A stretch of 64,000 bases of DNA from Bdellovibrionales bacterium (GTDB lineage: Bacteria > Bdellovibrionota > Bdellovibrionia > Bdellovibrionales > UBA1609). The position numbers and the translations under genes were made by a program. The stretch covers positions 1,824,001 through 1,888,000 of the forward strand of contig CBDCMT010000001.1 of the NCBI GenBank assembly GCA_965219095.1. Reading direction: 5' to 3'. A model generated the notes under the pieces. The model saw only the letters and a program-made list of their open reading frames with translations. It had not been told where the DNA came from and ran no database searches. Below are positions 2,916 through 57,812 of this stretch, one piece after another (the stretch's first letter is position 1; every line of letters starts with the position of its first letter).

Positions 2916-4604
2916 TCAGTGAATTATAGTTTTCACATTACCCCGACCAACACAAACACTGTGCGGATTTTTGACCGCTTGAACCCAATTTCCCATTTCA
3001 GACTTTTTGGCTCCAAAATACTCCACACCTAGACCATGTTTATAGACTACAACCTTCTTGATGATCTCTGAGAGAAGTTCTTTTTGCTGTCTGGGGGTGA
3101 TTTTGGGTAGAGCCTTGTTTACAACCTTGAGTGCTGAAAAGATATTCTCTGCTGAAATGATGTTTTCTTTGAATTGAGACTTTTCCCTTTTGAGTTTGTC
3201 GATCTCTTCTTCTACCTGAGATTTCTTTTCACTAAGGTTGCCTAATTCTTCAATTAAAATGTCCTGAGCTTTCTGGTTCTTGCTTCTAGCAATGGCCTGA
3301 GTGAGGCTCTCTATATCTTTCCTTATGCCCTTTAAGGCTTCTAGGCGAGAGTACATAAGACTTTCCTGTTGTTTGAGACTCTCCTGGTTTTGGTGAGTGT
3401 TGTTTTGAGCAAGCTTTACTAAAAGGGCCTTATTTTTTGATAACTCTTTGAGTCGAAATAAAACACCTTCCTCTATAGTGTGGGCAGGAACATGCTCTAA
3501 GTCACATTTTTTTAAATGCCGATCTCCATAAGTCATCATCTTTCTTCTGTGGCCATAATAAAAGTACTTTTTTCCGTCTCTATTTGAGCTTCCTTTCCCT
3601 ACAAGCTTATCTCCACAAACTCCACAATACGTTAAACCTGAAAGAATATAACAATGATTGCTAGCTCTTAATTCTTTTTTATTTTTTTCTAAACGATCTT
3701 GAACCTCATTAAAAAGATTTTTATCAATAATAGCAGGCCACTGGCTGTCATAAACTTTGTATCTTTCAGGAACAGAAAGCTCTGACTGATCTTTATTTCT
3801 ATTTTTCTTGTTGAGTTCTCTTTTTCCTAAATAGGAAAAGTTGGTGAGAACAGTGTATAAAGACGAAGCAGTCCATCTTGTTCCGCCTCTTTTTTGTCCC
3901 TTTTTATTTACAAAAGACTTGGTGGTGTAACCATTTTGATTTAAAAAGTTTAAAACTTTAAATGTTGAGCCTAGCTCTAGAAGCTTTTTAAAAATCATTT
4001 GAACTATAGGTTTTTCTTCTTCATTAACTTTCAAATGGCATTTTTTTTCAGGGTGAAGATCATAGCCTAACATTCTTTGTCCACCATTAGAAAGACCTCT
4101 CTCTGCCCTTGCGTGAACTCCATGCTTTATACGCTCTACAGTGGTTTGCCTTTCAAATTGAGCAAAGCTAATGGCTTGGATAACCATAAGCTCTCCCATA
4201 GCAGTTGAGGTGTCAAAGTTTTCCTTTAGACTAAAAAACTTCACTTTATGTTCTTTGAGAAAATCCCAAAACTGGCAGAAATCTTTAACACTTCTACTAA
4301 GCCTTGAAAGCTCTGTTACAATAACAGCATTAACCTTTCCTAAAACAATGTCTCTACACATTTTTTGAAAAGCTGGACGGTTTAAGTTCTTCCCTGAATA
4401 ATCCTTGTCTGTGTAAGTTTCAATAACTTTTCCCCAATTTTTTTCAGTGTTGTTTTTCATATTGATAAAGTTTTTAATTCTTTGTGGGTGAGATACAAGA
4501 GAGCCTTCTTCTCTAATTTCATCACTTGGAGAAAGCCTCACATAAGAAGCTATGTTGTATTTATAATCCAATTGTTTTTTTGAAGTCTTCTTTTTTGAGG
4601 ACAT
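2916..4604 (-). CDS. Large serine recombinase LSR1 (resolvase + recombinase + Zn-ribbon + coiled coil); start uncertain (ATG 4604 or TTG 4571)
   Basis: Motifs YVRLS (catalytic Ser), D..YSGKNLNRPAFQ, LSRLSRS, AQFER, LSGLTYCGVCG, and a coiled-coil C-terminal region. Confidence 0.95.
   Translation of the reverse strand: MSSKKKTSKKQLDYKYNIASYVRLSPSDEIREEGSLVSHPQRIKNFINMKNNTEKNWGKVIETYTDKDYSGKNLNRPAFQKMCRDIVLGKVNAVIVTELSRLSRSVKDFCQFWDFLKEHKVKFFSLKENFDTSTAMGELMVIQAISFAQFERQTTVERIKHGVHARAERGLSNGGQRMLGYDLHPEKKCHLKVNEEEKPIVQMIFKKLLELGSTFKVLNFLNQNGYTTKSFVNKKGQKRGGTRWTASSLYTVLTNFSYLGKRELNKKNRNKDQSELSVPERYKVYDSQWPAIIDKNLFNEVQDRLEKNKKELRASNHCYILSGLTYCGVCGDKLVGKGSSNRDGKKYFYYGHRRKMMTYGDRHLKKCDLEHVPAHTIEEGVLFRLKELSKNKALLVKLAQNNTHQNQESLKQQESLMYSRLEALKGIRKDIESLTQAIARSKNQKAQDILIEELGNLSEKKSQVEEEIDKLKREKSQFKENIISAENIFSALKVVNKALPKITPRQQKELLSEIIKKVVVYKHGLGVEYFGAKKSEMGNWVQAVKNPHSVCVGRGNVKTIIH
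2941..2986. other. attL-like end of the LSR element (core CG at 2944-2945, arm motif 2967-2986)
   Basis: Identity with 15654-15696 begins exactly at CGACCAACAC; the sequence to the left is unrelated. Confidence 0.7.
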
Positions 4605-4776
4605 GGCCTTTGAGGGGTTTTCCCCTTTTGCTATTTTCCTCCATGAACCGCTGTAACATGTTTGCGATTTTTTCGATTCTTTCATCTTCTTCCTCCTGAC
4701 TTAATTCTACGGGAATCCATTTTATATTGTTTAGCATAGAGTCTCTTATGGAGCGAGATTTTTTTCTCTGCTTCAT
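4561..4776 (-). CDS. 71-aa protein overlapping the LSR1 5' end (recombination accessory factor candidate)
   Basis: AAAGGAG RBS; homologous to 13826-14041 (ML..I.WI.VE...EEE.ERI..IA.ML.RFMEEN). Confidence 0.7.
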   Translation of the reverse strand: MKQRKKSRSIRDSMLNNIKWIPVELSQEEEDERIEKIANMLQRFMEENSKRGKPLKGHVLKKEDFKKTIGL

Positions 4777-4854
4777 ACAACAACTCCTTTCAAGGATAAC
4801 AAGCTTTTTTATTGTTTTCTAGGTTTGACGTGGTGAGTATAGAGGTAGGGTTTT

Positions 4855-5136
4855 TTAGTTAAAAAGGGCCTTTATATCGGAAAGCCTAGGGCTTTTATTA
4901 GCACTCTCTAGCTCTTTGATGAGAGATTTGGCATAGGTCACAGGATTTTGAGTTTCTTTTTTAATTTTGTTGATATTTTTTTTAAAGTGCTGCTTTTCAT
5001 AGCTTTCAATAATAAAAGAAGTGAGGGCTTGTTTTTTGACTTTACTGGCAGTCTCTTTATTGAGAGCTTCTAGCATTTTTATAAGAGATTTGTTAGCTTG
5101 ATTTGAAATAGCAATTTTAGAAAATTTTTCTTTCAT
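4855..5136 (-). CDS. 93-aa basic protein of the LSR module (possible DNA-binding protein)
   Basis: AGGAG RBS; paralogue at 9868-10152 and a degraded copy at about 13470-13750. Confidence 0.7.
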   Translation of the reverse strand: MKEKFSKIAISNQANKSLIKMLEALNKETASKVKKQALTSFIIESYEKQHFKKNINKIKKETQNPVTYAKSLIKELESANKSPRLSDIKALFN

Positions 5137-5172: not shown

Positions 5173-5637
5173 CTAGGCCACTTTTCCTTTGTATTTTTCT
5201 ACAAATTCTAGAATATCGTGCTTCCAGTAGTAGTTTACTTCATCGAAGGTTATGAGTTCTTCATCTGAAACTAAGCCGTCTATGTATTCATCTTTAGCTA
5301 ATCTCCAAGAGATTTCATCAAGCTGTTTAATGGCAACTGCTGTATCCACCGTGAGCCAGACGATTTTTGTATCTTCTGAGTAGCACTTATCAATCATAGT
5401 CTCAAATGCTTCCTCTGTATTGACTGGATCAAGAGCTTCTTTTAAAAGTTGTTCATAGACCCATTCGGTTCCGTACTCAACTCCAAAGCCTTCAAGCTCA
5501 CGCATGAGATCATCTGTTCCACAAGCTTCGCAAACTCCTGTTGGTGCTTTCATGTAACAGCCATAGCAAAAGGGCCTTGTTTCGAAAAATGCGATTTGTT
5601 CTAGTTTTTCTGTGATTTGTTTTTTTGTTAGCTCCAT
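5173..5637 (-). CDS. 154-aa acidic protein with N-terminal CxxC...CxxC zinc finger
   Basis: FCYGC...VCEAC; Asp/Glu-rich; AGGAGG RBS; paralogue at 6653-7117. Confidence 0.8.
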   Translation of the reverse strand: MELTKKQITEKLEQIAFFETRPFCYGCYMKAPTGVCEACGTDDLMRELEGFGVEYGTEWVYEQLLKEALDPVNTEEAFETMIDKCYSEDTKIVWLTVDTAVAIKQLDEISWRLAKDEYIDGLVSDEELITFDEVNYYWKHDILEFVEKYKGKVA

Positions 5638-5871
5638 ATTTGTCCTCCTTTGTTTATATGGTTTTTATTGTCAGGAGCTTGCAAAGGCCGAAGTGAGTGC
5701 TTTTCAAGAAAAAAATTGGGGGAAACCTTTAGGAGGAACCGATTTTTTTCTTTAAAAGCAGAACGAGCGCAGGCCTAAGCTCATGACAAAAATAAAAACC
5801 ATCATAAAAAACAAAGGAGATTAGGAGCTAACAATAAATCATAGAAAAACTATAAATTGCTTTTGAAACAG
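5578..5871 (+). promoter_or_regulatory. ~295-nt imperfect hairpin, candidate ssDNA (Frpo-like) promoter, copy 1
   Basis: Nested inverted arms: tagtttttctgtgattt/aaatcatagaaaaacta, ttgttagctcc/ggagctaacaa, ctcctttgttt/aaacaaaggag, atggtttttatt/aataaaaaccat, tgtcaggagctt/aagctcatgaca, aaaaaaattgg/ccgattttttt. Confidence 0.65.
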
Positions 5872-6652: not shown

Positions 6653-7117
6653 CTAGGCTATTTTCTCTTTATATTTTTCTATAAACTCCATAATATCATG
6701 CGTCCAGTAATAGTTTTCTTCATCAAAAGTGATAAGTTCTTCATCAGAGACTAAGCTATCTATATAACTGTCTATTTCTAAATTCCAAGAAATCTCATCA
6801 AGTTGTTTAATGGCAGTAACAGTGTCTACTGTAATCCAGCCGATTTTAACTTCTTCTGGGTAACATCCATCAACCATAGTTTCAAAGATTTCTTCTTTAT
6901 CGACTGGAACAAGGGCTTCTTTTAAAAGCTGTTCATAGACCCATTCGGTTCCATATTCAACGCCAAAGCCTTCAAGTTCACGCATAAGATCATCTGATCC
7001 ACATTTGTGACAAACTCCTGTTGGTGCTTTTATGTAACAGCCATAGCAAAATGGTGTTGTTTCAATAAAAGCGATTTTTTCTAGTTTTTCTATGATTTGT
7101 TGTTTTGTTAGCTCCGT
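6653..7117 (-). pseudogene. Second copy of the 154-aa acidic zinc-finger gene, start codon ATG>ACG
   Basis: Colinear with 5173-5637; cgt at 7115-7117 replaces cat; the frame is otherwise open. Confidence 0.75.
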
Positions 7118-7354
7118 ATTTGTCCTCCTTTGTTTATATGGTTTTTATTGTCAGGAGCTTAAAAGAGGCCGAAGCGAGTGCTTTTCAAGACAAAAAATTG
7201 GGGGAAACCTTTTAGGGGGAACCGATTTTTTTCTTTAAAAGCAGAACGAGCGTAGGCCTAAGCTCATGACAAAAATAAAAACCATCATAAAAAACAAAGG
7301 AGGTTAGGAGCTAACAATAAATCGTAGGAAAGCTTAGAAATTGCTTTTGAAATA
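7058..7354 (+). promoter_or_regulatory. ~295-nt imperfect hairpin, candidate ssDNA promoter, copy 2
   Basis: Homologous to 5578-5871 with pairing retained, including new G.T pairs on the + strand. Confidence 0.65.
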
Positions 7355-8944: not shown

Positions 8945-9286
8945 CTAGATTGTGACTTTGCAGTACTCCGAAGGGTTGTCTGGATCATCACTTTTTGAAG
9001 CATTATTGTGCCAGTGAAGAGGTTGAAGGTTTGAGAGTTCATCTCCACCACCTTTTGCGACTGGATTAATGTGATCGATTTCCCAGCCGTATTCAGAGCC
9101 TCTATTTCCATATTGGTTGAAGTGGATTGTGGCACCACATTTATCTTGACGATTATTATTGTCGATTACTTCTCGTACAATACCATCGTCTTCTTCAGTT
9201 ATATAACTAGCTTTCTCCCAAACCTGTTCAATGATGCTTTGTTCAAAAGCATCCCCATTTCTTTTTGTATTAGGTTTTCTTTTCAT
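8945..9286 (-). CDS. Small HNH endonuclease
   Basis: GWEIDHINPVAKGGGDELSNLQPLHWHNNASK. Confidence 0.9.
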   Translation of the reverse strand: MKRKPNTKRNGDAFEQSIIEQVWEKASYITEEDDGIVREVIDNNNRQDKCGATIHFNQYGNRGSEYGWEIDHINPVAKGGGDELSNLQPLHWHNNASKSDDPDNPSEYCKVTI

Positions 9287-9867: not shown

Positions 9868-10152
9868 TTATTTTTTAAAAAAAGACTGAATGTCTTTAAA
9901 ACCTATGTTTTTGTTGTTTTTTTCAAGCTCTTTTAGAAGAGATTTAGCATAAGCAAGAGGGCTTTGTGTTTCTTTGATCATTCTTTTTCGGTCGATTTTA
10001 AAAAACTTTTTTTCATACTGAATCACAAGCCAAGAAAGAAGAGCCTGCTTTTTAACCTTTGTATGAGAGTCGTTGTTAAGAGATTCAAGCATTCTTTCTA
10101 AGGCATTATTCCCCTTATTTGTAATAGCAATTTTTATGAGTTTTTCTTTCAT
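9868..10152 (-). CDS. 94-aa paralogue of 4855-5136
   Basis: MKEK..KIAI.N..N..L..MLE.LN...KVKKQAL...KETQ.P..YAKSL conserved. Confidence 0.75.
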   Translation of the reverse strand: MKEKLIKIAITNKGNNALERMLESLNNDSHTKVKKQALLSWLVIQYEKKFFKIDRKRMIKETQSPLAYAKSLLKELEKNNKNIGFKDIQSFFKK

Positions 10153-10219
10153 ATTTTTTCTTTCATTCTGTTTGAAAAAGGGTAAGTAGCTATAAAGCCA
10201 TTTTCCCTTTATATTTTTC

Positions 10220-10615
10220 GGCTCCTCCCAGGAATCTGTGGGTAAAAAGTAGCTAGAAATTCCCCAAACGGGTCATATCAAGCAAAGCAAGAAAGTAAAG
10301 ATTAAGATATCCTATCTTATATTTTTGAGCTCTTTGAGATCTTTTGCTGGTCTCTATTGCTTCAGCGATTGAACTCAAAAATCTTCATTTTATTTGCTGT
10401 ATTACATTAAAATCTTAAAAAAGAAGTCCCTACTTCCCAGATGCTTTTGAAGACTATACTAAATGATTGTTTAAAATGGTAGTCTTGTGTATGGAGACAT
10501 TTATTTTTATGCTTTTAAAGTAATTCATCTTAATTTTTACTTTCTTGCTTTGCTTGATATGACCCGTTTGGGGAATTTCTAGCTACTTTTTACCCACAGA
10601 TTCCCGGGAGGAGCC
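10220..10615. mobile_element. 396-bp MITE built from two ISL3-type left ends
   Basis: ~89-bp terminal inverted repeats with 2 mismatches, starting GGCTCCTCCC. The interior holds a degraded transposase start (atgcttttgaagactatactaaatg at 10441). Confidence 0.85.
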
Positions 10616-10779
10616 AAATTTTTAAGCTTAATTTTTCGTTTTTGAGTATAAGGTTCTCTATGTATTAGAAATATTTTGTCTAAATACTTTTTTTTGAAAA
10701 TCATTTTGCTCCTTATGTTGGATTATGTTATTATAGCTAAGGTATATTTTATTCAAGCAAGCTTGAAAAGGCGTAAGAT

Positions 10780-11524: not shown

Positions 11525-12991
11525 ATGGGAAATAAAAAATATATTTATAATTCAAAATTTTTTTCTCCATTTATATTGATTAAAGATAAAGGTAAAATTC
11601 AAAAAATAAGAAAAGAGTTTTATAAAATTAACCATAACAATTGGCACTTTGATAAGACAAGCGGAGAGCAAGCCTCTCAATATACATGTACAGATTTTCT
11701 TCTCTACATTGTTTTTTCATTTAATAGAAAAAATAAAAAAGGCGAAGCTCGTTTATGGTTGATTTATAGCGAAAAAGAGTTATTTGATGGATACCCTCAT
11801 ATATTTATTACAAATATTATTTCCTCAGAAGAGGGTATTGATGTTGTAGAACACAACAATATAGCAAAATCATTTTACAAAGAAGTAATGGTCACATTAG
11901 CTAATAATTTAAACTTAGAGCATGGAGAAACTATGAATGGGAAGCATAGGACTTCAATAGAGAGTACATCAAATACAGATCCAAATCCATGTTATTCGAT
12001 TAAAGAACAAATAAATAACATCTCTTGCCAACGTCCGCACCTTGTCATACTTGGAGCAGGAGCAACTAGAGCAACACTTCCCAATGGAGATAAAAACGGA
12101 AAAACATTACCTTTAATGAATGATCTTATTGAAATTCTTGATCTAAGTAAGTTAATTACAGATTGTACCTCTGAAGTACCAAACAATTTTGAAGTGTTTT
12201 ATAGTTCTATACACAAGGAAAAATCCGATCTATCTAAACAAATAGAGAGAAAGATATATGAATATTTTTCATCTGTCCAAATACCAGATAAGCCCACTAT
12301 TTATGATTATTTGATTTTTTGCTTAAGAGAAAAAGATGTTATAGCTACTTTTAATTGGGATCCTATTTTAGATCAAGCTCTTGAAAGAAGTGCCACTTAT
12401 TTTAAAAATAAATGTAGGGAGTTTCGCCTGCCACAAATATTACACCTTCATGGTAATGTTTCTATTGGTTATTGTATCGACTGTCAAACAAAGGGTTCAA
12501 TAATGACTCTTTGTCATAAATGTAATAAACCTAGAAGAAAATCTCAGTTATTGTATCCTGTATCTGAAAAAAACTATAAATTAGATGCTTATATTGAACA
12601 AAATTGGAAAGCTGTTCAAAAAGTTTTTGAACAAGCGTACATTGTAACAATTTTTGGCTATTCAAAACCTACTTCGGATGCAAAAGCTATAACGCTTTTT
12701 AAAAATGCTTGGGGGACGCAAGAAGATAGAGATCTTGAGGAATTTGAAATTATAAACACAGAGAATACGGTTGAAAGTTGGGAAGAGTTTATACACACAC
12801 ATCATTTCGAATATACAAATAACTTTTTTGAATCTAAAATTGCAAGGTTTCCAAGAAGATCATGTGAGTGCGAATGGGAAAGACTTATGGAATGTAAGTT
12901 TTTCGATGGCAATCCAATAAAAAACCGCTCTTCTTTTAAGGAGCTATATGATTTCATGGAACCACTAATAAAAAGAGAGTTAGAAAAATGA
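11525..12991 (+). CDS. SIR2-like domain protein; possible internal start at ATG 11933
   Basis: Motifs VILGAGA, ATFNWD, LHLHGNV, CxxC...CxxC, IFGYS. A GGAG RBS precedes ATG 11933. Confidence 0.75.
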   Translation: MGNKKYIYNSKFFSPFILIKDKGKIQKIRKEFYKINHNNWHFDKTSGEQASQYTCTDFLLYIVFSFNRKNKKGEARLWLIYSEKELFDGYPHIFITNIISSEEGIDVVEHNNIAKSFYKEVMVTLANNLNLEHGETMNGKHRTSIESTSNTDPNPCYSIKEQINNISCQRPHLVILGAGATRATLPNGDKNGKTLPLMNDLIEILDLSKLITDCTSEVPNNFEVFYSSIHKEKSDLSKQIERKIYEYFSSVQIPDKPTIYDYLIFCLREKDVIATFNWDPILDQALERSATYFKNKCREFRLPQILHLHGNVSIGYCIDCQTKGSIMTLCHKCNKPRRKSQLLYPVSEKNYKLDAYIEQNWKAVQKVFEQAYIVTIFGYSKPTSDAKAITLFKNAWGTQEDRDLEEFEIINTENTVESWEEFIHTHHFEYTNNFFESKIARFPRRSCECEWERLMECKFFDGNPIKNRSSFKELYDFMEPLIKRELEK

Positions 12992-13314
12992 GGAAACCCA
13001 ACACCAACCAATACGGCAAAGACTTCTCAAAAGAAGAGGAGCTTCTTGTCTGAAAAAAAGACGAAATTATTTCTGGTGAAAACCCTACTGTAGTCCGAAA
13101 AGATAAATGTGGAGCAACTATTTACTTTGATCAATATGGATATGATGAAAACGGAAAGCCTCAAAAGTATGGTTGGGAGATTGATCATATTATGTCAGTT
13201 TCAAAAGGTGGGGGAGATGAACTTTCCAATCTCCAGTCTCTTCATTGGAGAAACAATCGCTCAAAAGGTGATAATTCAGATATTCCCCCAGAATATTGCA
13301 AAATCACAGATTAA
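12988..13314 (+). pseudogene. HNH endonuclease pseudogene (paralogue of 8945-9286)
   Basis: MRKPNT...V*KK...RKDKCGATI...YGWEIDHI..VSKGGGDELSNLQSLHWRNN; in-frame TGA at 13051-13053 where the paralogue has Trp; ATGA overlap with the SIR2-like gene. Confidence 0.85.
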
Positions 13315-13469: not shown

Positions 13470-13750
13470 TAAAATAAAAACTCACAAAAATTGCAATTAC
13501 AGATGAGGCTAACAAAGCCCTTGAAAAAATGCTTGAAACTCTTCATAAAAACTCTCTTTTCAAAATCAAAAAACAGAATCTTTCTTCATGGATTATAGAG
13601 ACTTATGAAAAAAGTTATTTTTCAACGCCTAAAGAGGCTCAAAACCCCATACTTATGCCAAGTCCGTTATTAAAAAGCTAGAAGAGACCAAGAAAAATCC
13701 TACACTAAAGGAGATCAACAGTATTTTCTCAAAGCTAGAAGGCACACATA
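13470..13750 (+). pseudogene. Degraded copy of the 93-aa LSR-module gene
   Basis: Encodes KLTKIAITDEANKALEKMLETLHK...KIKKQNLSSWIIETYEKSYF; start lost and frameshifted; bounds approximate. Confidence 0.65.
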
Positions 13751-13825
13751 AGAACTTTATTTATACTCGGCACGTCATGTCTGTAAAATATGATTAAAAA
13801 TTGTTATTATTAAGGAGGAATTCTT

Positions 13826-14041
13826 ATGGGTAAGAACCGAAAACCTTACTCCAAGAAATACCCTATGCTAGACCATATAGAATGGATAAAAGTTGAACAA
13901 ACAGAGGAAGAGGAAAATGAAAGAATTAAAGAGATCGCAAGAATGCTCCACAGGTTTATGGAGGAAAATTGCAAAAGGAGAAAATCCCAAAAAAACAATG
14001 TATTCCAAAAAGAAGGCTTTAAAAAAAGCTTTGGACTGTAA
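13826..14041 (+). CDS. 71-aa protein overlapping the LSR2 5' end
   Basis: AAGGAGG RBS; homologous to 4561-4776. Confidence 0.7.
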   Translation: MGKNRKPYSKKYPMLDHIEWIKVEQTEEEENERIKEIARMLHRFMEENCKRRKSQKNNVFQKEGFKKSFGL

Positions 14042-15692
14042 GTATAGATTAGCGGTTTATGTAAGACTCTCTCCAAGTGATGAAATAAGAGAGGAAGGTT
14101 CTCTTATCTCTCATCCTCAAAGAATTAAAAATTTTGTTAAAATGAAAAACTCTACAGAAAAAAACTGGGGAAAAGTCATAGAAACTTATACAGATAAAGA
14201 TTTTTCAGGAAAGAATCTAAACCGCCCTGCTTTTAAGAAAATGTGTCGAGATATTATTTCAGGAAAAGTCAATGCTGTTATTGTCACAGAGCTTTCAAGG
14301 TTAAGTAGAAATGTAAAAGATTTTTGTGAGTTTTGGGAATTTTTAAAAGAAAATAAAGTTAAGTTTTTTAGTCTTAAAGAAAATTTTGACACCTCTACTG
14401 CTATGGGAGAGCTTATGGTCATTCAAGCTATTAGCTTTGCTCAATTTGAAAGACAAACTACTGTAGAGAGGATAAAACATGGAGTTCAAGCAAGAGCTGA
14501 ACGAGGTCTTTCTAATGGTGGGCAAAGGATGTTAGGCTATGATCCTCATTCTGAGAAGAAATGCCACCTTATGGTGAATGAAAAAGAAAAGCCTCTTGTT
14601 GAGTTTATTTTTAAAAAGTTTTTAGAGTTAGGCTCTCTAAGTAAAACTCTTAATTATTTAAATGAAAATGGCTATACTACAAAATCATTTCTAAACAAAA
14701 AGAAAGAGAAAAAAGGTGGCAACCGTTGGACTATGGGAACTCTTTATACTTGTCTTACGAACCTTGCTTATTTAGGGAAAAGGGAGTTAAATAAGAAAAA
14801 TCGCAACAAAGATCAATCAGAGCTGAGTCCTTCTGAAAGATATAAAGTCTATGAGAGTCAATGGCCTGCTATTGTATCCAAAGAGCTTTTTAATGATGCC
14901 CAAGCTCTTTTAGAAGTGAATAAAAAGCACACAAGGTTTAAGAAGCATTGTTATGTTCTTTCAGGCTTAGCTTATTGTGGGCTTTGTGGAGAGAAGATTG
15001 TAGGAGTTGTGGCTAACGGAAGAGATAGAAAGTATTACTACTATGGCCATAAGAGAAAGATGCTCGCTCATGGAACAAGGCATTTAGAAAGGTGTGAGCT
15101 TGAAAATGTGCCTGCTCATGCTTTAGAAGAAGCGGTTCTTTTTAGAATTAAAAACCTTATAAAAAACAAAAAACTTTTGATAGAGCTTGTCAAAAACAAC
15201 ACTTCGCAAAATGAAAAAAGCCTCAAACAGCATAAAAGCCTTATGCAGTCCCGTATAGAGGAGTTAAAGGCTATAGAAAAGGACATAGAAGGACTTACAA
15301 TGGCCATAGCAAGGGCTAAAGATGACAAAACCCAAGATGTTCTGTTAGCAGAAATGGACAAGTTGACTGAGAAGTCCCACGCTTTAAAAGAAGAGATAGA
15401 AAAGCTCAAAAAGGAAAAATCTAAAATGAAAGAAGGGCTTGTTTCAGCAGAAGGAGTGTTTTCAGCCTTAAAGCTTGTAAACAAAGAGTTACCTAAGCTA
15501 GATCGACAACAGCAAAGACAACTCCTTATGAAAGTTATAAAACGAATTGTGGTCTATAAGGATAAACTAGGGGTAGAGTATCTAGGGGAACAAAACCCCA
15601 ACTTAGACTTTGGGGTTCAAGCGGTCAAAAATTTGTCTGATTTTCGACTTGGTCGACCAACACAAACACTGTGCGGATTTTTGACCGCTTGA
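13893..15692 (+). CDS. Large serine recombinase LSR2 (true start probably about 13999-14032)
   Basis: YVRLS, LSRLSRN, AQFER, LSGLAYCGLCG; clearly diverged paralogue of LSR1. Confidence 0.95.
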   Translation: MNKQRKRKMKELKRSQECSTGLWRKIAKGENPKKTMYSKKKALKKALDCKYRLAVYVRLSPSDEIREEGSLISHPQRIKNFVKMKNSTEKNWGKVIETYTDKDFSGKNLNRPAFKKMCRDIISGKVNAVIVTELSRLSRNVKDFCEFWEFLKENKVKFFSLKENFDTSTAMGELMVIQAISFAQFERQTTVERIKHGVQARAERGLSNGGQRMLGYDPHSEKKCHLMVNEKEKPLVEFIFKKFLELGSLSKTLNYLNENGYTTKSFLNKKKEKKGGNRWTMGTLYTCLTNLAYLGKRELNKKNRNKDQSELSPSERYKVYESQWPAIVSKELFNDAQALLEVNKKHTRFKKHCYVLSGLAYCGLCGEKIVGVVANGRDRKYYYYGHKRKMLAHGTRHLERCELENVPAHALEEAVLFRIKNLIKNKKLLIELVKNNTSQNEKSLKQHKSLMQSRIEELKAIEKDIEGLTMAIARAKDDKTQDVLLAEMDKLTEKSHALKEEIEKLKKEKSKMKEGLVSAEGVFSALKLVNKELPKLDRQQQRQLLMKVIKRIVVYKDKLGVEYLGEQNPNLDFGVQAVKNLSDFRLGRPTQTLCGFLTA

Positions 15693-15696
15693 ACCC
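15613..15696. other. Symmetric attP-like junction between two convergent LSR genes
   Basis: Perfect 20-bp IR GGGTTCAAGCGGTCAAAAAT (15613-15632 and 15677-15696) centred exactly on the palindrome TTGGTCGACCAA (15649-15660). Confidence 0.75.
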
Positions 15697-17282
15697 AATT
15701 TCCTATTTCAGACTTTTTGGCTCCAAAATACTCCACGCCTAAGCCATGTTTATAGACTACAACCTTCTTGATGATCTCTGAGAGAAGCTCTTTTTGTTGT
15801 CTGGGAGTGATTTTGGGCAGAGTCTTATTTACAACCTTGAGTGCTGAAAAGATATTCTCTGCTGAAATGATGTTGTCTTTGAATTGAGACTTTTCCTTTT
15901 TGAGCTTTTTGATCTCTTCTTCTACCTGAGATTTCTTTTCACTAAGGTTACCTAACTCTTCAATTAAAATGTCCTGAGCTTTCTGATTCTTACTTCTAGC
16001 AATGGCCTGAGTGAGACTTTCTATATCTTTCCTTATGCCCTTTAAGGCTTCTAGGCGAGAGTACATAAGGCTTTCCTGCTGTTTGAGACTCTCCTGATTT
16101 TGGTGAGTGTTGTTTTGAGCAAGCTTTACTAAAAGGGCCTTATTTTTTGATAACTCTTTGAGTCTAAACAAAACACCTTCCTCTATAGTGTGGGCAGGAA
16201 CATGCTCTAAGTCACATTTTTTTAAATGCCGATCTCCATAAGTCATCATCTTTCTTCTGTGGCCATAATAAAAGTATTTTTTTCCGTCTCTATTTGAGCT
16301 TCCTTTCCCTACAAGTTTATCGCCACAAACTCCACAATAAGTTAAACCTGAAAGAATATAACAATGATTGCTGGCTCTTAATTCTTTTTTATTTTTTTCT
16401 AAACGATCTTGAACCTCATTAAAAAGATTTTTATCAATAATAGCAGGCCATTGGCTATCATAAACTTTGTATCTTTCAGAAATAGAAAGCTCTGACTGAT
16501 CTTTATTTCTATTTCTCTTATTAAGCTCTCTTTTTCCTAAATAGGAAAGGTTGGTGAGAACAGTGTATAAAGACGAGATAGTCCATCTTGTTCCGCCTCT
16601 TTTTTTCTCCCTTTTTGTTCACAAAAGACTTCGTAGTGTAGCCGTTTTGATTTAAAAAGTTTAAAACTTTAAATATAGAGCCTAGCTCTAAAAGCTTTTT
16701 AAAAATCATTTGAACTATAGGTTTTTCTTCTTCATTAACTTTCAAATGGCATTTTTTTTCAGGGTGAAGATCATAGCCTAACATTCTTTGTCCACCATTA
16801 GAAAGACCTCTCTCTGCTCTTGCGTGAACTCCATGCTTTATACGCTCTACAGTGGTTTGTCTTTCAAATTGAGCAAAACTAATGGCTTGGATAACCATAA
16901 GTTCTCCCATAGCAGTTGAGGTATCAAAGTTTTCTTTTAGACTAAAAAACTTCACTTTATGTTCTTTGAGAAAATCCCAAAACTGGCAAAAATCTTTAAC
17001 ACTTCTACTAAGCCTTGAAAGCTCTGTTACGATAACAGCATTAACCTTTCCTAAAACAATGTCTCTACACATTTTTTGAAAAGCTGGACGGTTTAAGTTC
17101 TTCCCTGAATAATCCTTGTCTGTGTAAGTTTCAATAACCTTTCCCCAATTCTTCTCTGTATTGTTTTTCATATTGATAAAATTTTTGATTCTTTGTGGGT
17201 GAGATACAAGAGAGCCTTCTTCTCTAATTTCATCGCTTGGAGAAAGCTTCACATAAGAAGCTATCTTGTGTTTATAATCTAA
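15617..17282 (-). pseudogene. Second copy of LSR1, frameshifted and with its 5' end replaced
   Basis: Near-identical to 2944-4590. Extra T in the run at about 16600-16606; TTG>TTA at the candidate start; upstream replaced by hsdS. Confidence 0.9.
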
Positions 17283-17878
17283 TCGTTTTTTTGAAGTCTT
17301 CTTTTTTAAGAACAGATTGGCAATAGAGCTTTAGTTTTTCTTTAGCGGTTTCTAGTTCTTTTTTACTTTGGTCAATCAAAGAAAAGAGAGTTTCAATTTT
17401 TTTAACAATGACTCTTTGTTCGGGGATAGGGGCAAGTGGAGAGGGAATCGTCTTTAATTTACTACTTGACAACTCCTTAAAAGTAACACCTGATCCCAAA
17501 GAATTTAGTAAATCCTTCTTCAATTTTAAGAAGTAATAAATATATTCTGAAAGATTATTGCCTTTAACAATTAAGTTACGAAAACCTTGGTTTGTAGTAA
17601 CCATATTTGATGCTATCACAACGTATCCAATTGGAGTTCTTGTTGAGAGCAAGACACTTCCTTTAGGTAATTCTTTGGCGGAAGACTTTTTTAAACCCTC
17701 TAAGGAAATGTTTTTATTCCCTCTTGAAATATACTTGCTTTTATAATTAGAAAGGTCTTTAGGGGTTATCCATGGTATACCTCCGCCCCAATATTTTTCA
17801 TTCATTGTTGAATGGAGTTCCGCCACCTATTATTTCGCATACATCCTCTAACTTACACTCAGTCCAATCATCTCTCAT
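17272..17878 (-). pseudogene. hsdS: Type I RM specificity subunit, single TRD, frameshifted and fused to the LSR-module tail
   Basis: MRDDWTECKLEDVCEIIGGGTP then a frameshift to ...YWGGGIPWITPKDL...LLSTRTPIG...NQGF...PLAPIPEQRVIVKKIE. Confidence 0.85.
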
Positions 17879-20739: not shown

Positions 20740-22037
20740 CTAGCCAAGATTGTCTTCAGTGTCGCTTGTGGCCACCCAATACTCCTTTTCTGAGGGGTAG
20801 AGCCTAATCACTGCCTTTTCCTCTCCTTGTACCATAAAAGCTTCTGAAAACTCCCTCTTTTTGCTTTGAAGGCTTGCTACAAGAGAGAGTTCCCTCTCAT
20901 TGAGCTTTAATATCTCATAGGCAGGCTTTAGGTCTCCTTTTTGTTGAAGAATAAATTTTGTGGCGGTGTTGTTTAGAATCGCAGGGCCTATGGGGTGGTT
21001 AGCGATTTCCTCTATCCCTTGAGTGATGAATGTTATGCCAGATCCAGTTTTTCTAAGAGTTCGTACACAATACTCCATAAAATTTGAACTAGCCCTTCCC
21101 TTAAGTAGTTCCCAACACTCATCCATCAAAATGCGTTTCTTTTTTAAAGTTGTTTTAGGATCATTTGCTTCTATCCTTTGTAAAATAAAATTAGTGATAA
21201 TTAAAATCATAACACTTTGAAGGTCAGAGTAACTTGATAATCCTTTAAGATCAAAAACTACAAAATCATTTTCAGTGTTAAAACTTCCTTGAGTATCTAG
21301 AAGTTTTTCGTAAGGAGTTGAACTTGTCCAAGGATAGAGCATTTTAGCAAAGTTTTGAAGTTTTTTATCATTTGAATTTTTAAGTAGATTTTTAAAGTCC
21401 GAGAGTCTTGGAGTTTTATTGAACTTATAAAGTTCATCAATTTTTTCCTCTAATAAAGCACGTTCTAATTTGGGAAGTTTCTCTCCCTCAACATCCGTTA
21501 ATAAGTTCTCCATAAGTGCCAATAAGAATTTAATCTTTCCTGAATTTGGAGTCTTTGCGTTTCCTTGTAATGCAAACGGATTAAACGAGAGTGAATTGGG
21601 ATTTTCTTCTGAGTTATTAGACGATGGGGCAACATCAACATATTGACCTCTTGTTAGTTTGCAAATTTTTCTGTAGCTTCCGCCAATATCAATAATAAAA
21701 TTCATGGAGTTTTCCTTAATCTTTTCTTTGGATTGAAAATTCTCTGATTTTCCCTATGAAAACGGAGATTTTTTGAGGCGACCTAGAATGAAAAATCCTA
21801 GTGAGTAAAATTTATTTCGAATCTAGGTGAAGTAAAATAAGATTATTTAAAAAACTCTTCCCCGATCCTCTGGAGCCTGTAACTAGAGAATTGTAGTTAG
21901 AAAGCTTAGAATGAAATGGATCATATTTAACAAGAGCTTTTTCTCTGTTTCTAAAGAGACAAATTAGTTTTTGATCAACTCCTGTGTAGCTTTGATAGAC
22001 TGGTAGAAAATCAGCAAGGTTACTTGCCTTTGTTTTT
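20740..22037 (-). pseudogene. VirB4/TraC-type conjugative ATPase, C-terminal half, interrupted
   Basis: Walker A VTGSRGSGKS at about 21850-21885; IIDIGGSY; Walker B ILMDECW; RTLRKTG...ITQ. An insertion of about 100 bp splits the two parts. Confidence 0.85.
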
Positions 22038-26233: not shown

Positions 26234-28636
26234 TTAAAAAAGAGGCTTGCAAGAAAAGTCTTCTCCTATTTTTTTAGCAGTTTGAAGCCTTTTTCTCCAC
26301 TGAGAGTGGATTGTGGCTAACTTTTCTTCCATAGATTTAGTAAGAATATCTTTTTCTATCAAAGTTTGAATTAAATTTCCTTCTTGAAGTTTCTTCATCA
26401 CTGACCTCAATAATAAAGTCCAGATCATAGAATCTCCATGGCCTTTTTTAATCGAAATTTCCACCAATTCTATCCATTTTTTAGGGTACTTTTCAATCAT
26501 CAAGACTTTTGATAAAATATCGTTCACAATAGGATAATAAATGTTCTCGTTTCCTTTTTCAATCAAAACTTCCATAAACTTCACCCATTCTTTATGATAT
26601 TCTCGAATCACTAAGTCTTTTGACAAAACGTAATGTACAATATATTTACCGTAGCCTCTTTCAATCAAAACTTCCATAAACTTCACCCATTCTTTATGAT
26701 ATTTTTGAATTACTAAGTCTTTTGACAAAACGTAACGCAAAATATAAAAGCCGTAGCCTTTTTCAATCAAAACTTCCATAAACTTCACCCATTCTTTATG
26801 ATATTCTCGAATCACTAAGTCTTTTGATAAAACGTAACGCAAAATAGACAAGCCGTAGCCTTCTTCAATCAGAGCTTCCATAAATTTCATCCATTCTTGA
26901 TGATATTCTTGAATCACCAAGTCTTTTAATAAAATATTTTCAATAATAATAAAGATAATTTCCCTGTCTCTTATTTCGAATAAGCGCTTAATAAGAGAAA
27001 AATCCAAATACTTTAAGGGAACATCCAGTTCAAACCATTCTTGAAGGATAACTTCCCGTGAAGAATTTTTCTCTTCAATTGAATCTAAAACAATCTCTTT
27101 ATAAACATAATCTATATCCTTATCACTGACTTTACTGTTTAATAATTCACGATTTATTTTTCTTCTTAACCTTTCTAACAAACCTCTTTCTCGCTTCCAG
27201 TTTTTTTCACTTCTTTTCAAAAACTCGAAAAATCCTCTGAAACTTAGGTTAGAGCTATCAGGAATTACTCTCAATACAGCTTTGTTACGAAAAATAACTA
27301 TATCACCGTATAATGCAAAATCCGCTCCCTCTCTTGCTTCAGGGTGTACATGAAATCGAATCGTAAAACCAGTCCCGGCTCTTCCTGTTAGTCCTTTCAC
27401 TGTGTAAAAACCCTCACCATGGAAGGCATGCTCTCCGTCAGCATTTTCTCTTGAAATAAAAACATTAGGCTTTCCTTCAAGAGATCTTGTTATAATTTCA
27501 TAAGCTTCAAAGTCACTTGTTTCATGAGATACGATCTCTATTCCCAGATCCTTAGCTGTCCTTCCCTCTCCTTCTCTTATTTTTTTAGTTCTTAAAGGTT
27601 CTTTATGAAGCCAAAAAGTAAGACTTCCTTTTTCCCATTTATTTCCTCCCAGGCTTATGAGCTTTTCTTTTAAACCTAATTCATCAAGCACTCTCCAAGT
27701 TCTCTCTAGATCAGAATTTTGCATAAATAATTTTCTTACATTCATCTCCCACCAGAACTTCGCATAACCTGTTTTTAATTCTGAAGCTGAAAATTCATTT
27801 ATAATTTCTTTAATCCTTTCTAAATCTTCTTTTTTAGGCTTTAGTTCATACTGAAACATTTTAATCAAATAACGGATGACTGAAAAGATCTCAGGATTCA
27901 TACCCTCGTTGTACCTTTGAGTTTCTTTATGATTTTTTGAATCATAATAGCTTATTTCTCCTTTTAGAAGATCTTCTAAAAGGGAAGGGTTTCTGGAATC
28001 CCACTCCTTGATGCTTCTTACTACAGGATCTTTAGATTCGCTCAGTTCTATCATCATCACAGAATAAGAATCGGTATGCTGTTTTAATACATCTCCTTCC
28101 AATAAAGGTGCCTTTGGACCTCTTGATTCTCTTAAAGGCCTTACCTCCCAAGCACTTTTATTGCTATTTCCTTGAAAGTAGGGAAACTTTTTAGAGATTT
28201 CTTCTTCTAGCCTTGAGACTTTTTCCTCTGACCCCCCTTCTACGACTAAATCTATATCCTGAGTGGGAAAAAAGATCTTTGTGTAGTCGTAATCGAAATG
28301 TTCTTTTTGGGGTTTAAACCAGCCCTTGTTCTCATTTTCCTTTCGTTCTAGATCTTTTTTCACATAGTGAGCTAAACTAGAGGCTGATCCTCCTAAAAGC
28401 CAGACCCGGACTCCCATACTTTCAGCTAAGTTTTTGATGTACCGAAGTTCTGGATTTGTGAGGCGAGCTTCTTTGATAGCTTCGGTGAGTTGATCTGAAC
28501 TCACAGGAGTTTGTGAAAAAGTGAGCTGCGAGAATGAGAAAAAAACTGGAAAGCTTAAAGCAAACAAGAAGGTTTTAAAGTTCATAAAATCATATTCCTT
28601 AAAATCGTATTTATCCTTTGAAATTAACTGAAACAC
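26234..28636 (-). CDS. Probably exported 800-aa protein: nucleotidyltransferase-like N-terminus, ART-like middle, 34-aa helical repeats
   Basis: Signal-like N-terminus; VWLLGGS...DIDLVV (Pol-beta-type NTase motif); SHET...HGEGFYT; tandem repeats; C-terminus CKPLF. Confidence 0.6.
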   Translation of the reverse strand: MFQLISKDKYDFKEYDFMNFKTFLFALSFPVFFSFSQLTFSQTPVSSDQLTEAIKEARLTNPELRYIKNLAESMGVRVWLLGGSASSLAHYVKKDLERKENENKGWFKPQKEHFDYDYTKIFFPTQDIDLVVEGGSEEKVSRLEEEISKKFPYFQGNSNKSAWEVRPLRESRGPKAPLLEGDVLKQHTDSYSVMMIELSESKDPVVRSIKEWDSRNPSLLEDLLKGEISYYDSKNHKETQRYNEGMNPEIFSVIRYLIKMFQYELKPKKEDLERIKEIINEFSASELKTGYAKFWWEMNVRKLFMQNSDLERTWRVLDELGLKEKLISLGGNKWEKGSLTFWLHKEPLRTKKIREGEGRTAKDLGIEIVSHETSDFEAYEIITRSLEGKPNVFISRENADGEHAFHGEGFYTVKGLTGRAGTGFTIRFHVHPEAREGADFALYGDIVIFRNKAVLRVIPDSSNLSFRGFFEFLKRSEKNWKRERGLLERLRRKINRELLNSKVSDKDIDYVYKEIVLDSIEEKNSSREVILQEWFELDVPLKYLDFSLIKRLFEIRDREIIFIIIENILLKDLVIQEYHQEWMKFMEALIEEGYGLSILRYVLSKDLVIREYHKEWVKFMEVLIEKGYGFYILRYVLSKDLVIQKYHKEWVKFMEVLIERGYGKYIVHYVLSKDLVIREYHKEWVKFMEVLIEKGNENIYYPIVNDILSKVLMIEKYPKKWIELVEISIKKGHGDSMIWTLLLRSVMKKLQEGNLIQTLIEKDILTKSMEEKLATIHSQWRKRLQTAKKIGEDFSCKPLF
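26500..26945. repeat. 102-bp tandem coding repeat, ~4.5 copies
   Basis: ttcaatcaaaacttccataaacttcacccattc recurs at about 26558, 26660 and 26762, with a variant at about 26864. Confidence 0.9.
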
Positions 28637-44507: not shown

Positions 44508-45419
44508 ATGGCTAAAAATTCCATGAAAAAAAACTCCCCTACTCTTGATTTTGCAGTGGATCCGTTGAGCGAAACAATAGCTTATGAAACTTTGCTTAGT
44601 CTAAGAGATGTGACAGAAAAAACACTTGAAAAAGAGTTTCCCTCTGATAGTTTTCTGGAACAAGAAACTCTTTTACAAATCCTAGAATTAAAAAAAGAAT
44701 CAAGGCGAGAAGAAATCAAAAAGAATTATTCTGAGGTTAAAAAATTTGTAAGTGCAAAATGGAATGATTTTTCTGTTTGTATAAAAGATAACTTTCATTT
44801 TCCAAATGATTTAAAAAATCATGATTCTTTAAAGCTTTTCTATTATAAAGGCAATATAAGTCTTCTTGAAAGTCGTTGTATATCAATTATTGGTACAAGA
44901 GAGGCAACGTCAGATGGACTCAAAAGAGCAGAAAAGCTAACTAAGATTCTTGTCAATAAAAATTTTACAGTTGTTTCTGGACTTGCTAAAGGGATTGATA
45001 CAAAAGCTCTTCAAACTGCTATTAACCTTAACGGAAGGGTAATTGCTGTGATTGGGACACCTATTGACAAGTTTTATCCAAAGGAAAACAAGGAACTGCA
45101 AGAACTTATTGCCAAGAATCATCTTTTAATCAGCAAGGTTCCTCTTTTTAGATACAAAAAAGAAAATTTTTCTTCACATAAATTTCATTTTCCTAGAAGA
45201 AATATCATTATGTCAGCTATTTCAGAAGCCTCTATCATTGTAGAAGCTTCTGAAACGAGTGGAACACACTCTCAAGCAAGAGCAGCTCTCAAACAAGGGA
45301 AAAAGTTATTTATACTTGATTCTTGTTTCAAAAAATATAAATGGCCATTTATTCTCGAGCAAAAAGGGGCCATTAGAGTTAGACAAGAAGAAGATATATT
45401 GAGGCACATAAAGGAATAA
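44508..45419 (+). CDS. DprA/Smf family protein, ShosA-like (copy 2)
   Basis: 5 aa differences from 1108-2019. Confidence 0.9.
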   Translation: MAKNSMKKNSPTLDFAVDPLSETIAYETLLSLRDVTEKTLEKEFPSDSFLEQETLLQILELKKESRREEIKKNYSEVKKFVSAKWNDFSVCIKDNFHFPNDLKNHDSLKLFYYKGNISLLESRCISIIGTREATSDGLKRAEKLTKILVNKNFTVVSGLAKGIDTKALQTAINLNGRVIAVIGTPIDKFYPKENKELQELIAKNHLLISKVPLFRYKKENFSSHKFHFPRRNIIMSAISEASIIVEASETSGTHSQARAALKQGKKLFILDSCFKKYKWPFILEQKGAIRVRQEEDILRHIKE

Positions 45420-45424
45420 ACCTA

Positions 45425-46084
45425 GTGTCAAACTACAAGTGGCAAAAAATAAGAACTGGTTCAAACACAATGGATGATCTTATAAATATAAGAACTTTCA
45501 GACATATTGATCCTGACGATAATTGCTTTCATTTAATGGAGTGGATAAAGGGAGGAAGTTACAAGGATTCAGAGGCTAATAGTCGCATACTTAATTTTAA
45601 AAACCCACCGAAAGCACAAGGCTCAAATCTTCGTTATTATAAGGATAAGGCTATTAAACAATTTGCTAAGGACTTATACTGTCCTATAGAAAGTATTATT
45701 AAAAAGTATCAAGAAGAATCTATTTGTGTATCTTTTATACCATCTTCAGTATCAAGTAGTGATGGAGAATATGATGATAGATTTGAAAAAATTTGCGCTC
45801 TGCTTTGCAAAAAATTTTCAAAAATCCATTGCGAACAAGCTATTCGAGTAACAGAATCTCGAAACAAGTCAGCTCAAGGTGGAAAGCCTAGAGATGATGA
45901 ATATGTAGAAAAAATAAAACAAAGCTTTACATGGGATGGCTTCAGCCATACCCCAAGTGCTATTATCATTTTTGATGATGTTATAACAACAGGTTTACAG
46001 TTCAAAGCATATAAAAAGCTTATTAGAGAAAACTTAAACAATGATCCAATAATAATAGGTTTATTTTGGGCCAAAGCCGTTTAA
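45425..46084 (+). CDS. PRTase-fold protein, ShosT-like (copy 2, 8 aa shorter)
   Basis: DDVITTGLQF; GAA>TAA at 46082-46084. Confidence 0.75.
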   Translation: MSNYKWQKIRTGSNTMDDLINIRTFRHIDPDDNCFHLMEWIKGGSYKDSEANSRILNFKNPPKAQGSNLRYYKDKAIKQFAKDLYCPIESIIKKYQEESICVSFIPSSVSSSDGEYDDRFEKICALLCKKFSKIHCEQAIRVTESRNKSAQGGKPRDDEYVEKIKQSFTWDGFSHTPSAIIIFDDVITTGLQFKAYKKLIRENLNNDPIIIGLFWAKAV

Positions 46085-57379: not shown

Positions 57380-57456
57380 AGGGGCATAGCTTAGTTGGTT
57401 AAAGCATCTGGCTCATAACCGGAGGATCCGAGGTTCAAATCCTCGTGTCCCTACCA
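57380..57456 (+). tRNA. tRNA with CAT anticodon (Ile2/lysidine type likely, elongator Met not excluded)
   Basis: Acceptor AGGGGCA/TGTCCCT; anticodon loop CTCATAA; GGTTCAAATCC; ACCA end. Paired 1:72 and the absence of a GGG/CCC anticodon stem argue against initiator. Position after rpoD favours Ile2. Confidence 0.9.
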
Positions 57457-57812
57457 ATACGAACATTATACGAACCTATGACCATGTCATTATGAGCTTG
57501 GTGTTCGTTATTACTTAATGGAAGATAGGTACATCCAAAGTACTGAACAGCTATTTTATCTTTATAGACTGTGACTTTTTTTATAATGTTTGAGAGGAGT
57601 TCTTTTCTTTGGCACTGTGTTATTTTAGATAATTTTTTATTGACTATTTGTAAGGCTGAAAAAACATTTTCAGCTGAGATAACGGTTTCTTTAAAGGAAG
57701 TTCTTTCGTTTTTAAGTCTTTCTACTTCTTGTTTAATTTCACTAGATTTGTCATTTAAAGAGTTAATTTGCTCGAGCAAAAAATCTCTTGCCTTATTGCT
57801 GGTAGCTCTTGC
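57435..57812 (-). pseudogene. C-terminal fragment of a third LSR paralogue reading into the tRNA
   Basis: ISAENVFSALQIVNKKL.KIT..Q.KELLS.IIKKV.VYK aligns with the LSR1 C-terminus; cut by IS630-B. Confidence 0.88.

Follow-up and report, generated by a model that had tools for sequence, protein, structure and literature searches.

The subject of this report is a family of large serine recombinases (LSRs), two intact members of which, LSR1 and LSR2, lie in a 64,000-nucleotide stretch of the genome of a Bdellovibrionales bacterium (the window; C2:1824001-1888000 of a 3.1-Mb assembly), together with a pseudogene copy of LSR1 that meets LSR2 tail to tail. These genes probably belong to integrative elements that target transfer RNA (tRNA) and transfer-messenger RNA (tmRNA) genes and that carry their attachment (att) site within the LSR gene itself, the tail-to-tail junction in the window being off-pathway and the tetrapeptide FLTA, at which both of its open reading frames (ORFs) end, being unselected. 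Very likely the recombinase gene is a split gene, composed of the LSR and of a small module, here termed X, found at the far end of the integrated island. The split gene, the matching of reading phase between its parts and the geometry of the att sites are demonstrated at the level of sequence. The original prediction had instead taken the junction for an attP-like site at which recombination adds FLTA to both recombinases, as a built-in control of their stability or directionality. The LSR genes concerned are:

13893-15692, plus strand: LSR2, an intact large serine recombinase ORF with PF00239, PF07508 and PF13408 above cut-off
2916-4685, minus strand: LSR1, an intact large serine recombinase ORF with PF00239, PF07508 and PF13408 above cut-off and its crossover at 2944-2945
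15617-17314, minus strand: the LSR1 copy, a pseudogene with 95.4% DNA identity to LSR1 and one gap

The LSR1 and LSR2 proteins are 71% identical and share the domain order catalytic, recombinase, zinc ribbon, to which the model of a relative adds long paired helices (a coiled coil); LSR2 likely starts at a Met near 14001 that is conserved with LSR1. Elsewhere in the genome a gene 98% identical to LSR1 (C2:751174-752916) meets tRNA-Pro(tgg) and, by way of the same 6-bp core (C2:752910), continues into its 3' end. In this genome eight LSR ends altogether run in antisense into the 3' ends of tRNA genes (Pro, Met three times, Ile, Leu twice and Ser), six of them stopping at the TGA of the T-loop and only three belonging to full-length LSR genes. 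Among relatives 36 loci were examined, 12 of which had no called RNA gene at the LSR end and were left unscored; in all 24 scored tRNA- or tmRNA-anchored loci, five of them at tmRNA, the LSR ORF is open through the core, which bears out, well beyond the window, the earlier observation that these genes have no stop before the crossover. The targets comprise tmRNA and tRNAs for at least 11 amino acids. The core shared by the two ends of an island measures 6-9 nt and begins at the CCA end (26 LSR/X pairs), the crossover falls on the two bases immediately 5' of the RNA gene's discriminator-CCA end, and palindromic crossover pairs occur, among the 24 scored sites, at Pro and Leu targets only. The integrated ORF keeps its catalytic, recombinase, zinc-ribbon and coiled-coil domains, all upstream of the core. 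A family of LSRs inserting at tRNA and tmRNA CCA ends is probably present throughout the Bdellovibrionota. When close relatives of LSR2 with its junction were sought, two loci came from genome contigs (45-46% identity), three partial loci from metagenomes and none from viral contigs.

The second part of the gene, X, is an ORF of about 155 aa that combines a helix-turn-helix (HTH) with the first half of a recombinase domain. This genome has exactly three copies of it, of 156-161 aa, in three islands; each continues, across the core, from a short 3' remnant of an LSR gene and is in phase with the tRNA-side LSR of its own island. Its predicted fold is confident (predicted local distance difference test, pLDDT, 88) and it matches the recombinase domain of solved LSRs at E 1e-6; a fold search against the PDB returned nothing at E<=0.001, the top rows being LSR recombinase domains. 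Matches to X are present in 123/251 genomes of the order (E<=0.001) and 91/201 genomes of the phylum (E<=1e-8), while viral contigs yielded two weak HTH-only matches and no full LSR-X fusion, and plasmid and phage collections one weak partial match each. Between core and HTH there is no in-frame ATG in 23/29 X ORFs, and no ATG, GTG or TTG in 9/29, so that most X modules should be readable only from upstream. One further locus (L149, G386:C178:1-10000) carries four X ORFs on one strand within 10 kb, possibly an array of very small or collapsed elements.

Reading phase links the two parts. Twenty-eight cases with LSR and X on the same contig and strand, X upstream, were picked by eye, leaving out one LSR end at a contig edge, one case with X downstream and the pair L118/L079; two of the 28 had no called tRNA, and 26 were scored. 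X is in frame with the LSR of its island in 25 of the 26, including all four pairs in minority phases, and only 3/200,000 permutations reach 25 in-phase pairs, a value that overstates the support because one phase is dominant (22/26) and the genomes are kin. The predicted LSR-X fusions measure 686-757 aa (nine pairs computed). Other genomes contain twelve uninterrupted LSR-X ORFs; six of these retain the catalytic motif and measure 738-793 aa from stop to stop. A length-filtered, low-sensitivity search for fusions in a protein collection returned only P0001 and one weak match; P0150 (702 aa) appears by eye to be a full fusion, and P0008 is this genome's own remnant fusion.

The att sites rebuilt by joining LSR and X arms, with the crossover taken as the two bases after TGGN, point the same way. 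Across 29 rebuilt sites the two arms form inverted repeats 14-24 nt from the crossover, with a mean of 10.3/14 symmetric positions (10/14 for the LSR1 arm with its X arm) against 3.4/14 for the LSR arm and the tRNA arm (attL) and 5.4/14 for non-cognate pairs; at 26-40 nt the symmetry of the true attP is at background (mean 4/15). For the tRNA arm the best fit comes with a shift of 5 bp (5.8, as against 2.6-3.7 at other shifts). Serine integrases have symmetric attP outer motifs and a 5-bp shift in attB (10.1101/2025.01.03.631226), and on these alignments the geometry of LSR arm plus X arm is that of a canonical attP/attB system.

In the integrated state the LSR ORF runs into the antisense tRNA and stops there, often at the T-loop. 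In the mechanism proposed, the excised circle would encode a single LSR-X protein of about 690-760 aa. As an incoming circle would encode LSR-X alone, LSR-X should be the integration-competent form. Integration would then remove X, leaving a shorter enzyme expected to be weaker or altered in direction and so stabilizing the integrated state; tandem insertion would restore the full-length gene at internal junctions; and excision by the truncated LSR may need a partner, for which two small ORFs upstream of each LSR are candidates, as regulators or directionality factors. The claim that the recombination state rewrites the C-terminus of the recombinase stands, as judged from the reading frames, but the agent appears to be a folded module and not a degron, the end of the excised-state protein being X and not FLTA. 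Whether X acts on activity or direction at all is evenly balanced. More tentative still, and on present evidence somewhat doubtful, is the wider possibility that a class of serine integrases found across the phylum uses the crossover as a switch. An HTH plus partial recombinase domain, present only across attP or at tandem junctions, would license integration, and its absence, or the released module where it is made from attR, would set excision, in place of a separate directionality factor; part of the same proposal is that a single LSR chassis was redirected, through a core of only 6 bp, to tmRNA and to many tRNAs at their CCA ends.

Several observations weigh against this account. The circular LSR-X form is a prediction from sequence, and the window contains no X. 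The cognate pair L100/L124 is out of phase, with a frame break just after the core. The five contigs bearing natural fusions have no terminal overlap, and the symmetry of the natural-fusion junctions ranges from 2 to 13 of 14 (median 7, n=11); together these results indicate that most of the natural fusions are probably hybrid tandem junctions rather than circles, and two such hybrid junctions (L136, L137) are out of frame. When a natural fusion is modeled, residues 535-623 form a disordered linker, so contact between X and the enzyme is not indicated. Finally, X may be made alone, from attR, in the four phase-1 elements among the 29, in which the core itself supplies an ATG or TTG, and 22/59 database proteins of 148-172 aa start with MV.

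These last observations also speak for a rival role for X, in which it binds att independently as a regulator or directionality factor and is expressed from attR, its start derived from the core or the host, with the in-frame fusion an evolutionary relic or secondary form. Phase-1 elements do offer an in-frame start within the core, many X proteins in databases are called from a core-derived codon, and the models have X folding on its own behind a disordered linker. Against this, 20 of the 23 X ORFs in the commonest phase have no ATG before the HTH, and the phase of X follows that of its cognate LSR across three phases, a match for which a stand-alone gene would have no need; the rival is therefore unlikely. 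A second rival, that LSR-X is an excision-locked or self-repressing form in which X is a fused directionality factor or autorepressor, with integration carried out by a processed or prematurely ended form, can draw on the two DNA-binding-type folds of X, on an engineered SPbeta Int fused to its recombination directionality factor (Int-RDF) that drives the excisive reaction, and on the importance of the extreme C-terminus of SPbeta Int for excision (10.1101/2025.01.03.631226). It is nonetheless highly improbable, as the incoming circle encodes LSR-X alone and yet must integrate. LSR-X as the integrating form and the truncated LSR as its integrated-state remnant thus remains the preferred interpretation, against which the junction in the window can be considered. 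Its features are:

15613-15696, no strand: tail-to-tail join of two integrase-side att arms, LSR2 on the left and the LSR1 copy on the right; symmetry 6/14
15649-15660, no strand: 12-bp palindromic core with the putative crossover CG at 15654-15655; matches the tRNA-Pro 3'-end core
15613-15632, plus strand: 20-bp block in the LSR2 arm, codons GVQAVKN, the antisense of which is FLTA-stop for the LSR1 copy
15677-15696, minus strand: 20-bp block in the LSR1-copy arm, the antisense of which is FLTA-stop for LSR2

Much of what had been described at this junction is correct as description. Translation confirms that LSR2 (13893-15692, plus strand) and the LSR1 copy (3' end at 15617, minus strand) each read FLTA-stop from the opposite arm, ending ...CGFLTA* and ...DKFLTA*, while LSR1 (2916-4685, minus strand) ends ...GNVKTIIH*, and the ORFs of LSR2 and the LSR1 copy overlap antisense by 76 nt (15617-15692). 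The assignment of the junction as attP-like did not hold. Its symmetry in the zinc-domain zone is 6/14, the non-cognate level (cognate mean 10.3, non-cognate 5.4), and the 20-bp block that makes its arms look alike lies 23-42 nt from the crossover, mostly beyond the zone of cognate attP-arm symmetry, which argues that the junction joins two LSR-side arms. By its arms, then, the 15654/15655 junction is not the attP of this element; the cognate partner of an LSR arm is the start of X, not a second LSR. The symmetry of the family is centered on this crossover, the core's central 10-mer occurs once in the genome, and promoter and terminator scans around the junction gave chance-level results only.

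The two FLTA tails reduce to one event. The 15-mer coding for FLTA occurs three times in the window, compared with none in 100 shuffles, but each copy is one and the same 3' segment, carried by paralogous LSR genes; since the identical 20-bp block stands in both arms at equal distance from the crossover, the second tail follows from the first. Moreover, one of the two supposed beneficiaries is a pseudogene. In the LSR1 copy a homopolymer has gone from A6 to A7 (window 16600-16606), a +1 frameshift, and homology with LSR1 ends at 17314, at the likely start codon, with the 5' end replaced by an ORF for a type I restriction S subunit (PF01420, 17272-17826); frameshift and lost start together mean that it yields no full-length FLTA protein, which could arise only if the homopolymer is a sequencing error and an alternative start is used. 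Nor is the ending conserved, as a selected tag would lead one to expect: the tails of the 24 scored LSRs consist of 4-45 aa of antisense RNA gene and are unrelated to each other, none ending FLTA and two ending in Ala. Stops at variable positions in homologues had been named in the original prediction as grounds for refutation, and this is what the family shows. FLTA-stop is in all likelihood the antisense reading of a conserved coding block, a by-product with no selected role, and it could still destabilize LSR2 by accident.

The block itself (15613-15632, 15677-15696 and, in LSR1, 2967-2986) is identical in LSR1 and LSR2 while its flanks diverge, and viral contigs contain no exact copy of it. 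It could reflect coding sequence of common descent, homogenization within a quasi-palindrome, or a site for binding that lies beyond the zinc-domain zone; perfect identity of the LSR1 and LSR2 arms over 20 bp is not fully explained, and this counts against regarding FLTA as a mere by-product.

The contrary proposal, in which a two-LSR element would tag both of its recombinases with an FLTA degron at attP, in a proteolytic switch like that of mycobacteriophage BPs, is not without foundation. Both junction ORFs end FLTA, an ending in Ala or in [ASTV]-Ala is reached by only 3.1% and 0.9% of random frames, the block is perfectly shared between diverging flanks, the host carries clpX and prc/Tsp genes, and the 12.7-kb unit flanked by LSR1 and LSR2 recurs at this spacing. 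ClpXP prefers a terminal AA and Tsp small non-polar ends; FLTA is without a terminal AA, and the host's own tmRNA tag, its ORF read by eye, ends FAA. Of random frames closing within 300 codons, about 52% do so within 14, and in 24 simulated self-junctions FLTA arises only from the sister copy of LSR1, two others ending in Ala. In the close relative P0001, VEAVKS stands where LSR1 and LSR2 have VQAVKN, and by codon logic this turns the antisense stop into a sense codon, so that FLTA-stop cannot be encoded. The junction is not symmetric as an attP would be, the LSR1 arm pairing instead with an X arm, and one FLTA partner is a pseudogene. The likeness to BPs also fails at the level of architecture, as BPs has its att site in the repressor gene and an ssrA-like tag (PMC9262239) where the present att lies in the recombinase gene and FLTA is unconserved. 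The proposal is very unlikely, and a two-LSR element with the window junction as its attP was rejected on symmetry (6/14) and on rarity, a convergent LSR pair being found at only 1/82 loci with an LSR C-terminal ORF, this window's own (the 82 include duplicates and were selected for tRNA or X neighbors). Barring a stability test that restores it, the FLTA degron idea is best abandoned.

How, then, might the junction have arisen? Given that the tRNA-Pro crossover CG is palindromic, recombination in the wrong orientation would be allowed, the orientation of Bxb1 being set by the central dinucleotide alone (PMC3642061). The LSR2 element may have inserted or inverted the wrong way relative to a tandem LSR1 array, joining two LSR-side arms, with the partner X-X junction presumably deleted later. 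That junction, predicted to the left of the present one, is absent, and its absence tells against the scenario. A plausible deletion point, where the far ends of both elements would have been lost, is marked by repeats derived from ISL3 (about 10.2-10.6 kb), near which the genes change from mostly minus orientation in the LSR1 half to plus in the LSR2 half. An assembly artefact is exceedingly improbable: the junction is near-palindromic and known from the assembly alone, and the LSR1-copy frameshift falls in a homopolymer, but the two sides are different genes (proteins about 71% identical), the right side is a distinct 95% copy of LSR1, and the position of the join is exactly that of the crossover in this family. 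Off-pathway recombination between LSR arms therefore remains the favored origin. The remaining features related to these elements are:

2892-2945, no strand: secondary target site used by LSR1, with 2/14 symmetric matches to the LSR1 arm
4561-5136, minus strand: two small ORFs before LSR1, of 93 aa (4855-5136) and 71 aa (4561-4776)
13480-14041, plus strand: the small-ORF pair repeated before LSR2, start approximate, with the 71-aa ORF at 13826-14041
10202-10620, no strand: ISL3-end-derived repeats (families D16 and D18), right boundary approximate
57380-57821: a further family member, an LSR 3' remnant (57435-57821, minus strand) reading antisense into tRNA-Met (57380-57456, plus strand)

LSR1 reads past its crossover at 2944-2945 into a site other than a tRNA; the left site, 2892-2945, was considered as a cognate P arm and rejected, with symmetry of 2/14 and 5/14. 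A 54-nt homologue of this site, with the same CCA-like core and without an LSR arm, lies at C2:742097-742150 (L007), within the island at tRNA-Pro(tgg) and in the opposite orientation to that tRNA. Directly left of the secondary site in the window is a DprA-like and phosphoribosyltransferase (PRTase)-like gene pair with a PADLOC ShosA/ShosT match (1108-2708), of which 44508-46084 is a near-identical copy. The 71-aa ORF at 4561-4776 overlaps the start of LSR1, and the ORF of about 95 aa before LSR2 is split over two frames. An orphan third copy of this pre-LSR ORF, of about 94 aa, stands at 9868-10152 (minus strand), and two HNH genes are inverted relative to each other (8945-9286, minus; about 12990-13310, plus, broken); orphan and HNH genes suggest a third, deleted module. 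The LSR remnant at 57435-57821 terminates at the tRNA-Met T-loop. Elsewhere in the genome, LSR 3' remnants at C2:719256-719602, C2:369298-370080 and C1:127026-128957 are 96-100% identical to the tRNA-side gene of their own island and are truncated beside, or interrupted by, insertion sequence (IS) DNA, which suggests recent tandem duplication followed by IS-driven deletion; dozens of ISL3 copies, 96-99% identical, point to a very recent IS expansion. The window also contains a 488-aa ORF (11525-12991) with no Pfam or PADLOC match, the motifs of which we take to be those of SIR2-like defence proteins; an unknown ORF duplicated at 5173-5637 and 6653-6985, with structured-looking repeats upstream of the copies (5680-5850 and 7160-7334, families D15 and D20); and an 800-aa ORF (26234-28636) with 102-nt tandem repeats and no Pfam match, near a TraG-like ATPase fragment (20740-21705).

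The implications extend beyond this genome. As a caution for LSR mining, enzymes of this family are annotated as integrated-state truncations with tRNA-derived tails, and their missing C-terminal module is annotated tens of kilobases away as a separate small 'recombinase domain' protein; directionality control may be achieved without a separate factor; and, because its members insert at the 3' ends of many different tRNAs, the family lends itself to finding integrases of varied specificity. In the literature searched, with most subscription journals and all supplements outside its scope, neither a split LSR with an HTH/half-recombinase module nor this family in the Bdellovibrionota is described, and the parts available of 10.1101/2020.12.28.424599, PMC12884075 and PMC5861418 contain nothing on an LSR split, although such elements may be present in large catalogues of LSRs or islands. 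Integrase genes that overlap their att site are already known; what appears to be new is the conserved HTH/half-recombinase module split off at attR.

To our knowledge, canonical LSR genes end outside att, rely on a separate directionality factor and carry no second partial recombinase domain after the zinc domain. In other respects the family resembles Bxb1, SPbeta and LI/A118, with which it shares domain order, symmetric attP, the 5-bp attB shift and orientation by the central dinucleotide (PMC3642061, 10.1101/2025.01.03.631226). A close precedent is the ssrA islands of Dehalococcoides, whose dsiB was suggested to be fully functional only on the circle or beside an island with 'the requisite 3' gene fragment' (PMC3146451). 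As with DsiB, the LSR is open through att at tmRNA (5 of 24 here) and tandem junctions occur. DsiB islands, however, use tmRNA only, with insertion in the T-loop, a 20-bp repeat and a small partner recombinase, DsiA, and in the text available the 3' gene fragment is not identified (PMC3146451); here tmRNA and many tRNAs are used, with a 6-9-bp core at the CCA end and a conserved in-frame X. Among the window ORFs scanned there is no Pfam match of the DsiA, ParB or Mom type that marks the six-gene DsiB module, a scan that involved no direct comparison with Dehalococcoides proteins. X is a concrete candidate for the question posed by DsiB in 2011, of what the excised circle adds to a serine integrase whose gene overlaps att. 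Streptococcal rumA ICEs (integrative and conjugative elements), as well as the Myxococcus phage Mx8, likewise have att within the integrase gene and an excised form with a different C-terminus; in Mx8, 13 residues take the place of a C-terminus of 112, and the integrated form has lower activity (PMC4701971). Unlike the present enzymes, that of Mx8 belongs to the tyrosine recombinases, and the rumA ICEs have a protein-coding gene as their target, with no conserved added domain reported in the part of the text available (PMC4701971). The archaeal suicidal integrases of SSV1, pTN3 and pT26-2 are also split to the island ends and whole only in the free or recombined element, but they are tyrosine enzymes, exclusively archaeal, with both fragments inactive and the catalytic domain in int(C) (PMC8371274), whereas here the canonical LSR domains stay together and the accessory module alone is removed. 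BPs shares the rewriting of a protein's C-terminus by integration at a tRNA gene, but its attP lies in the repressor gene, its integrase is of the tyrosine type and what is removed is an ssrA-like tag (PMC9262239) rather than a folded DNA-binding module. By analogy, therefore, the system would work like Mx8 or like a mild form of suicidal integrase, while being a member of neither group.

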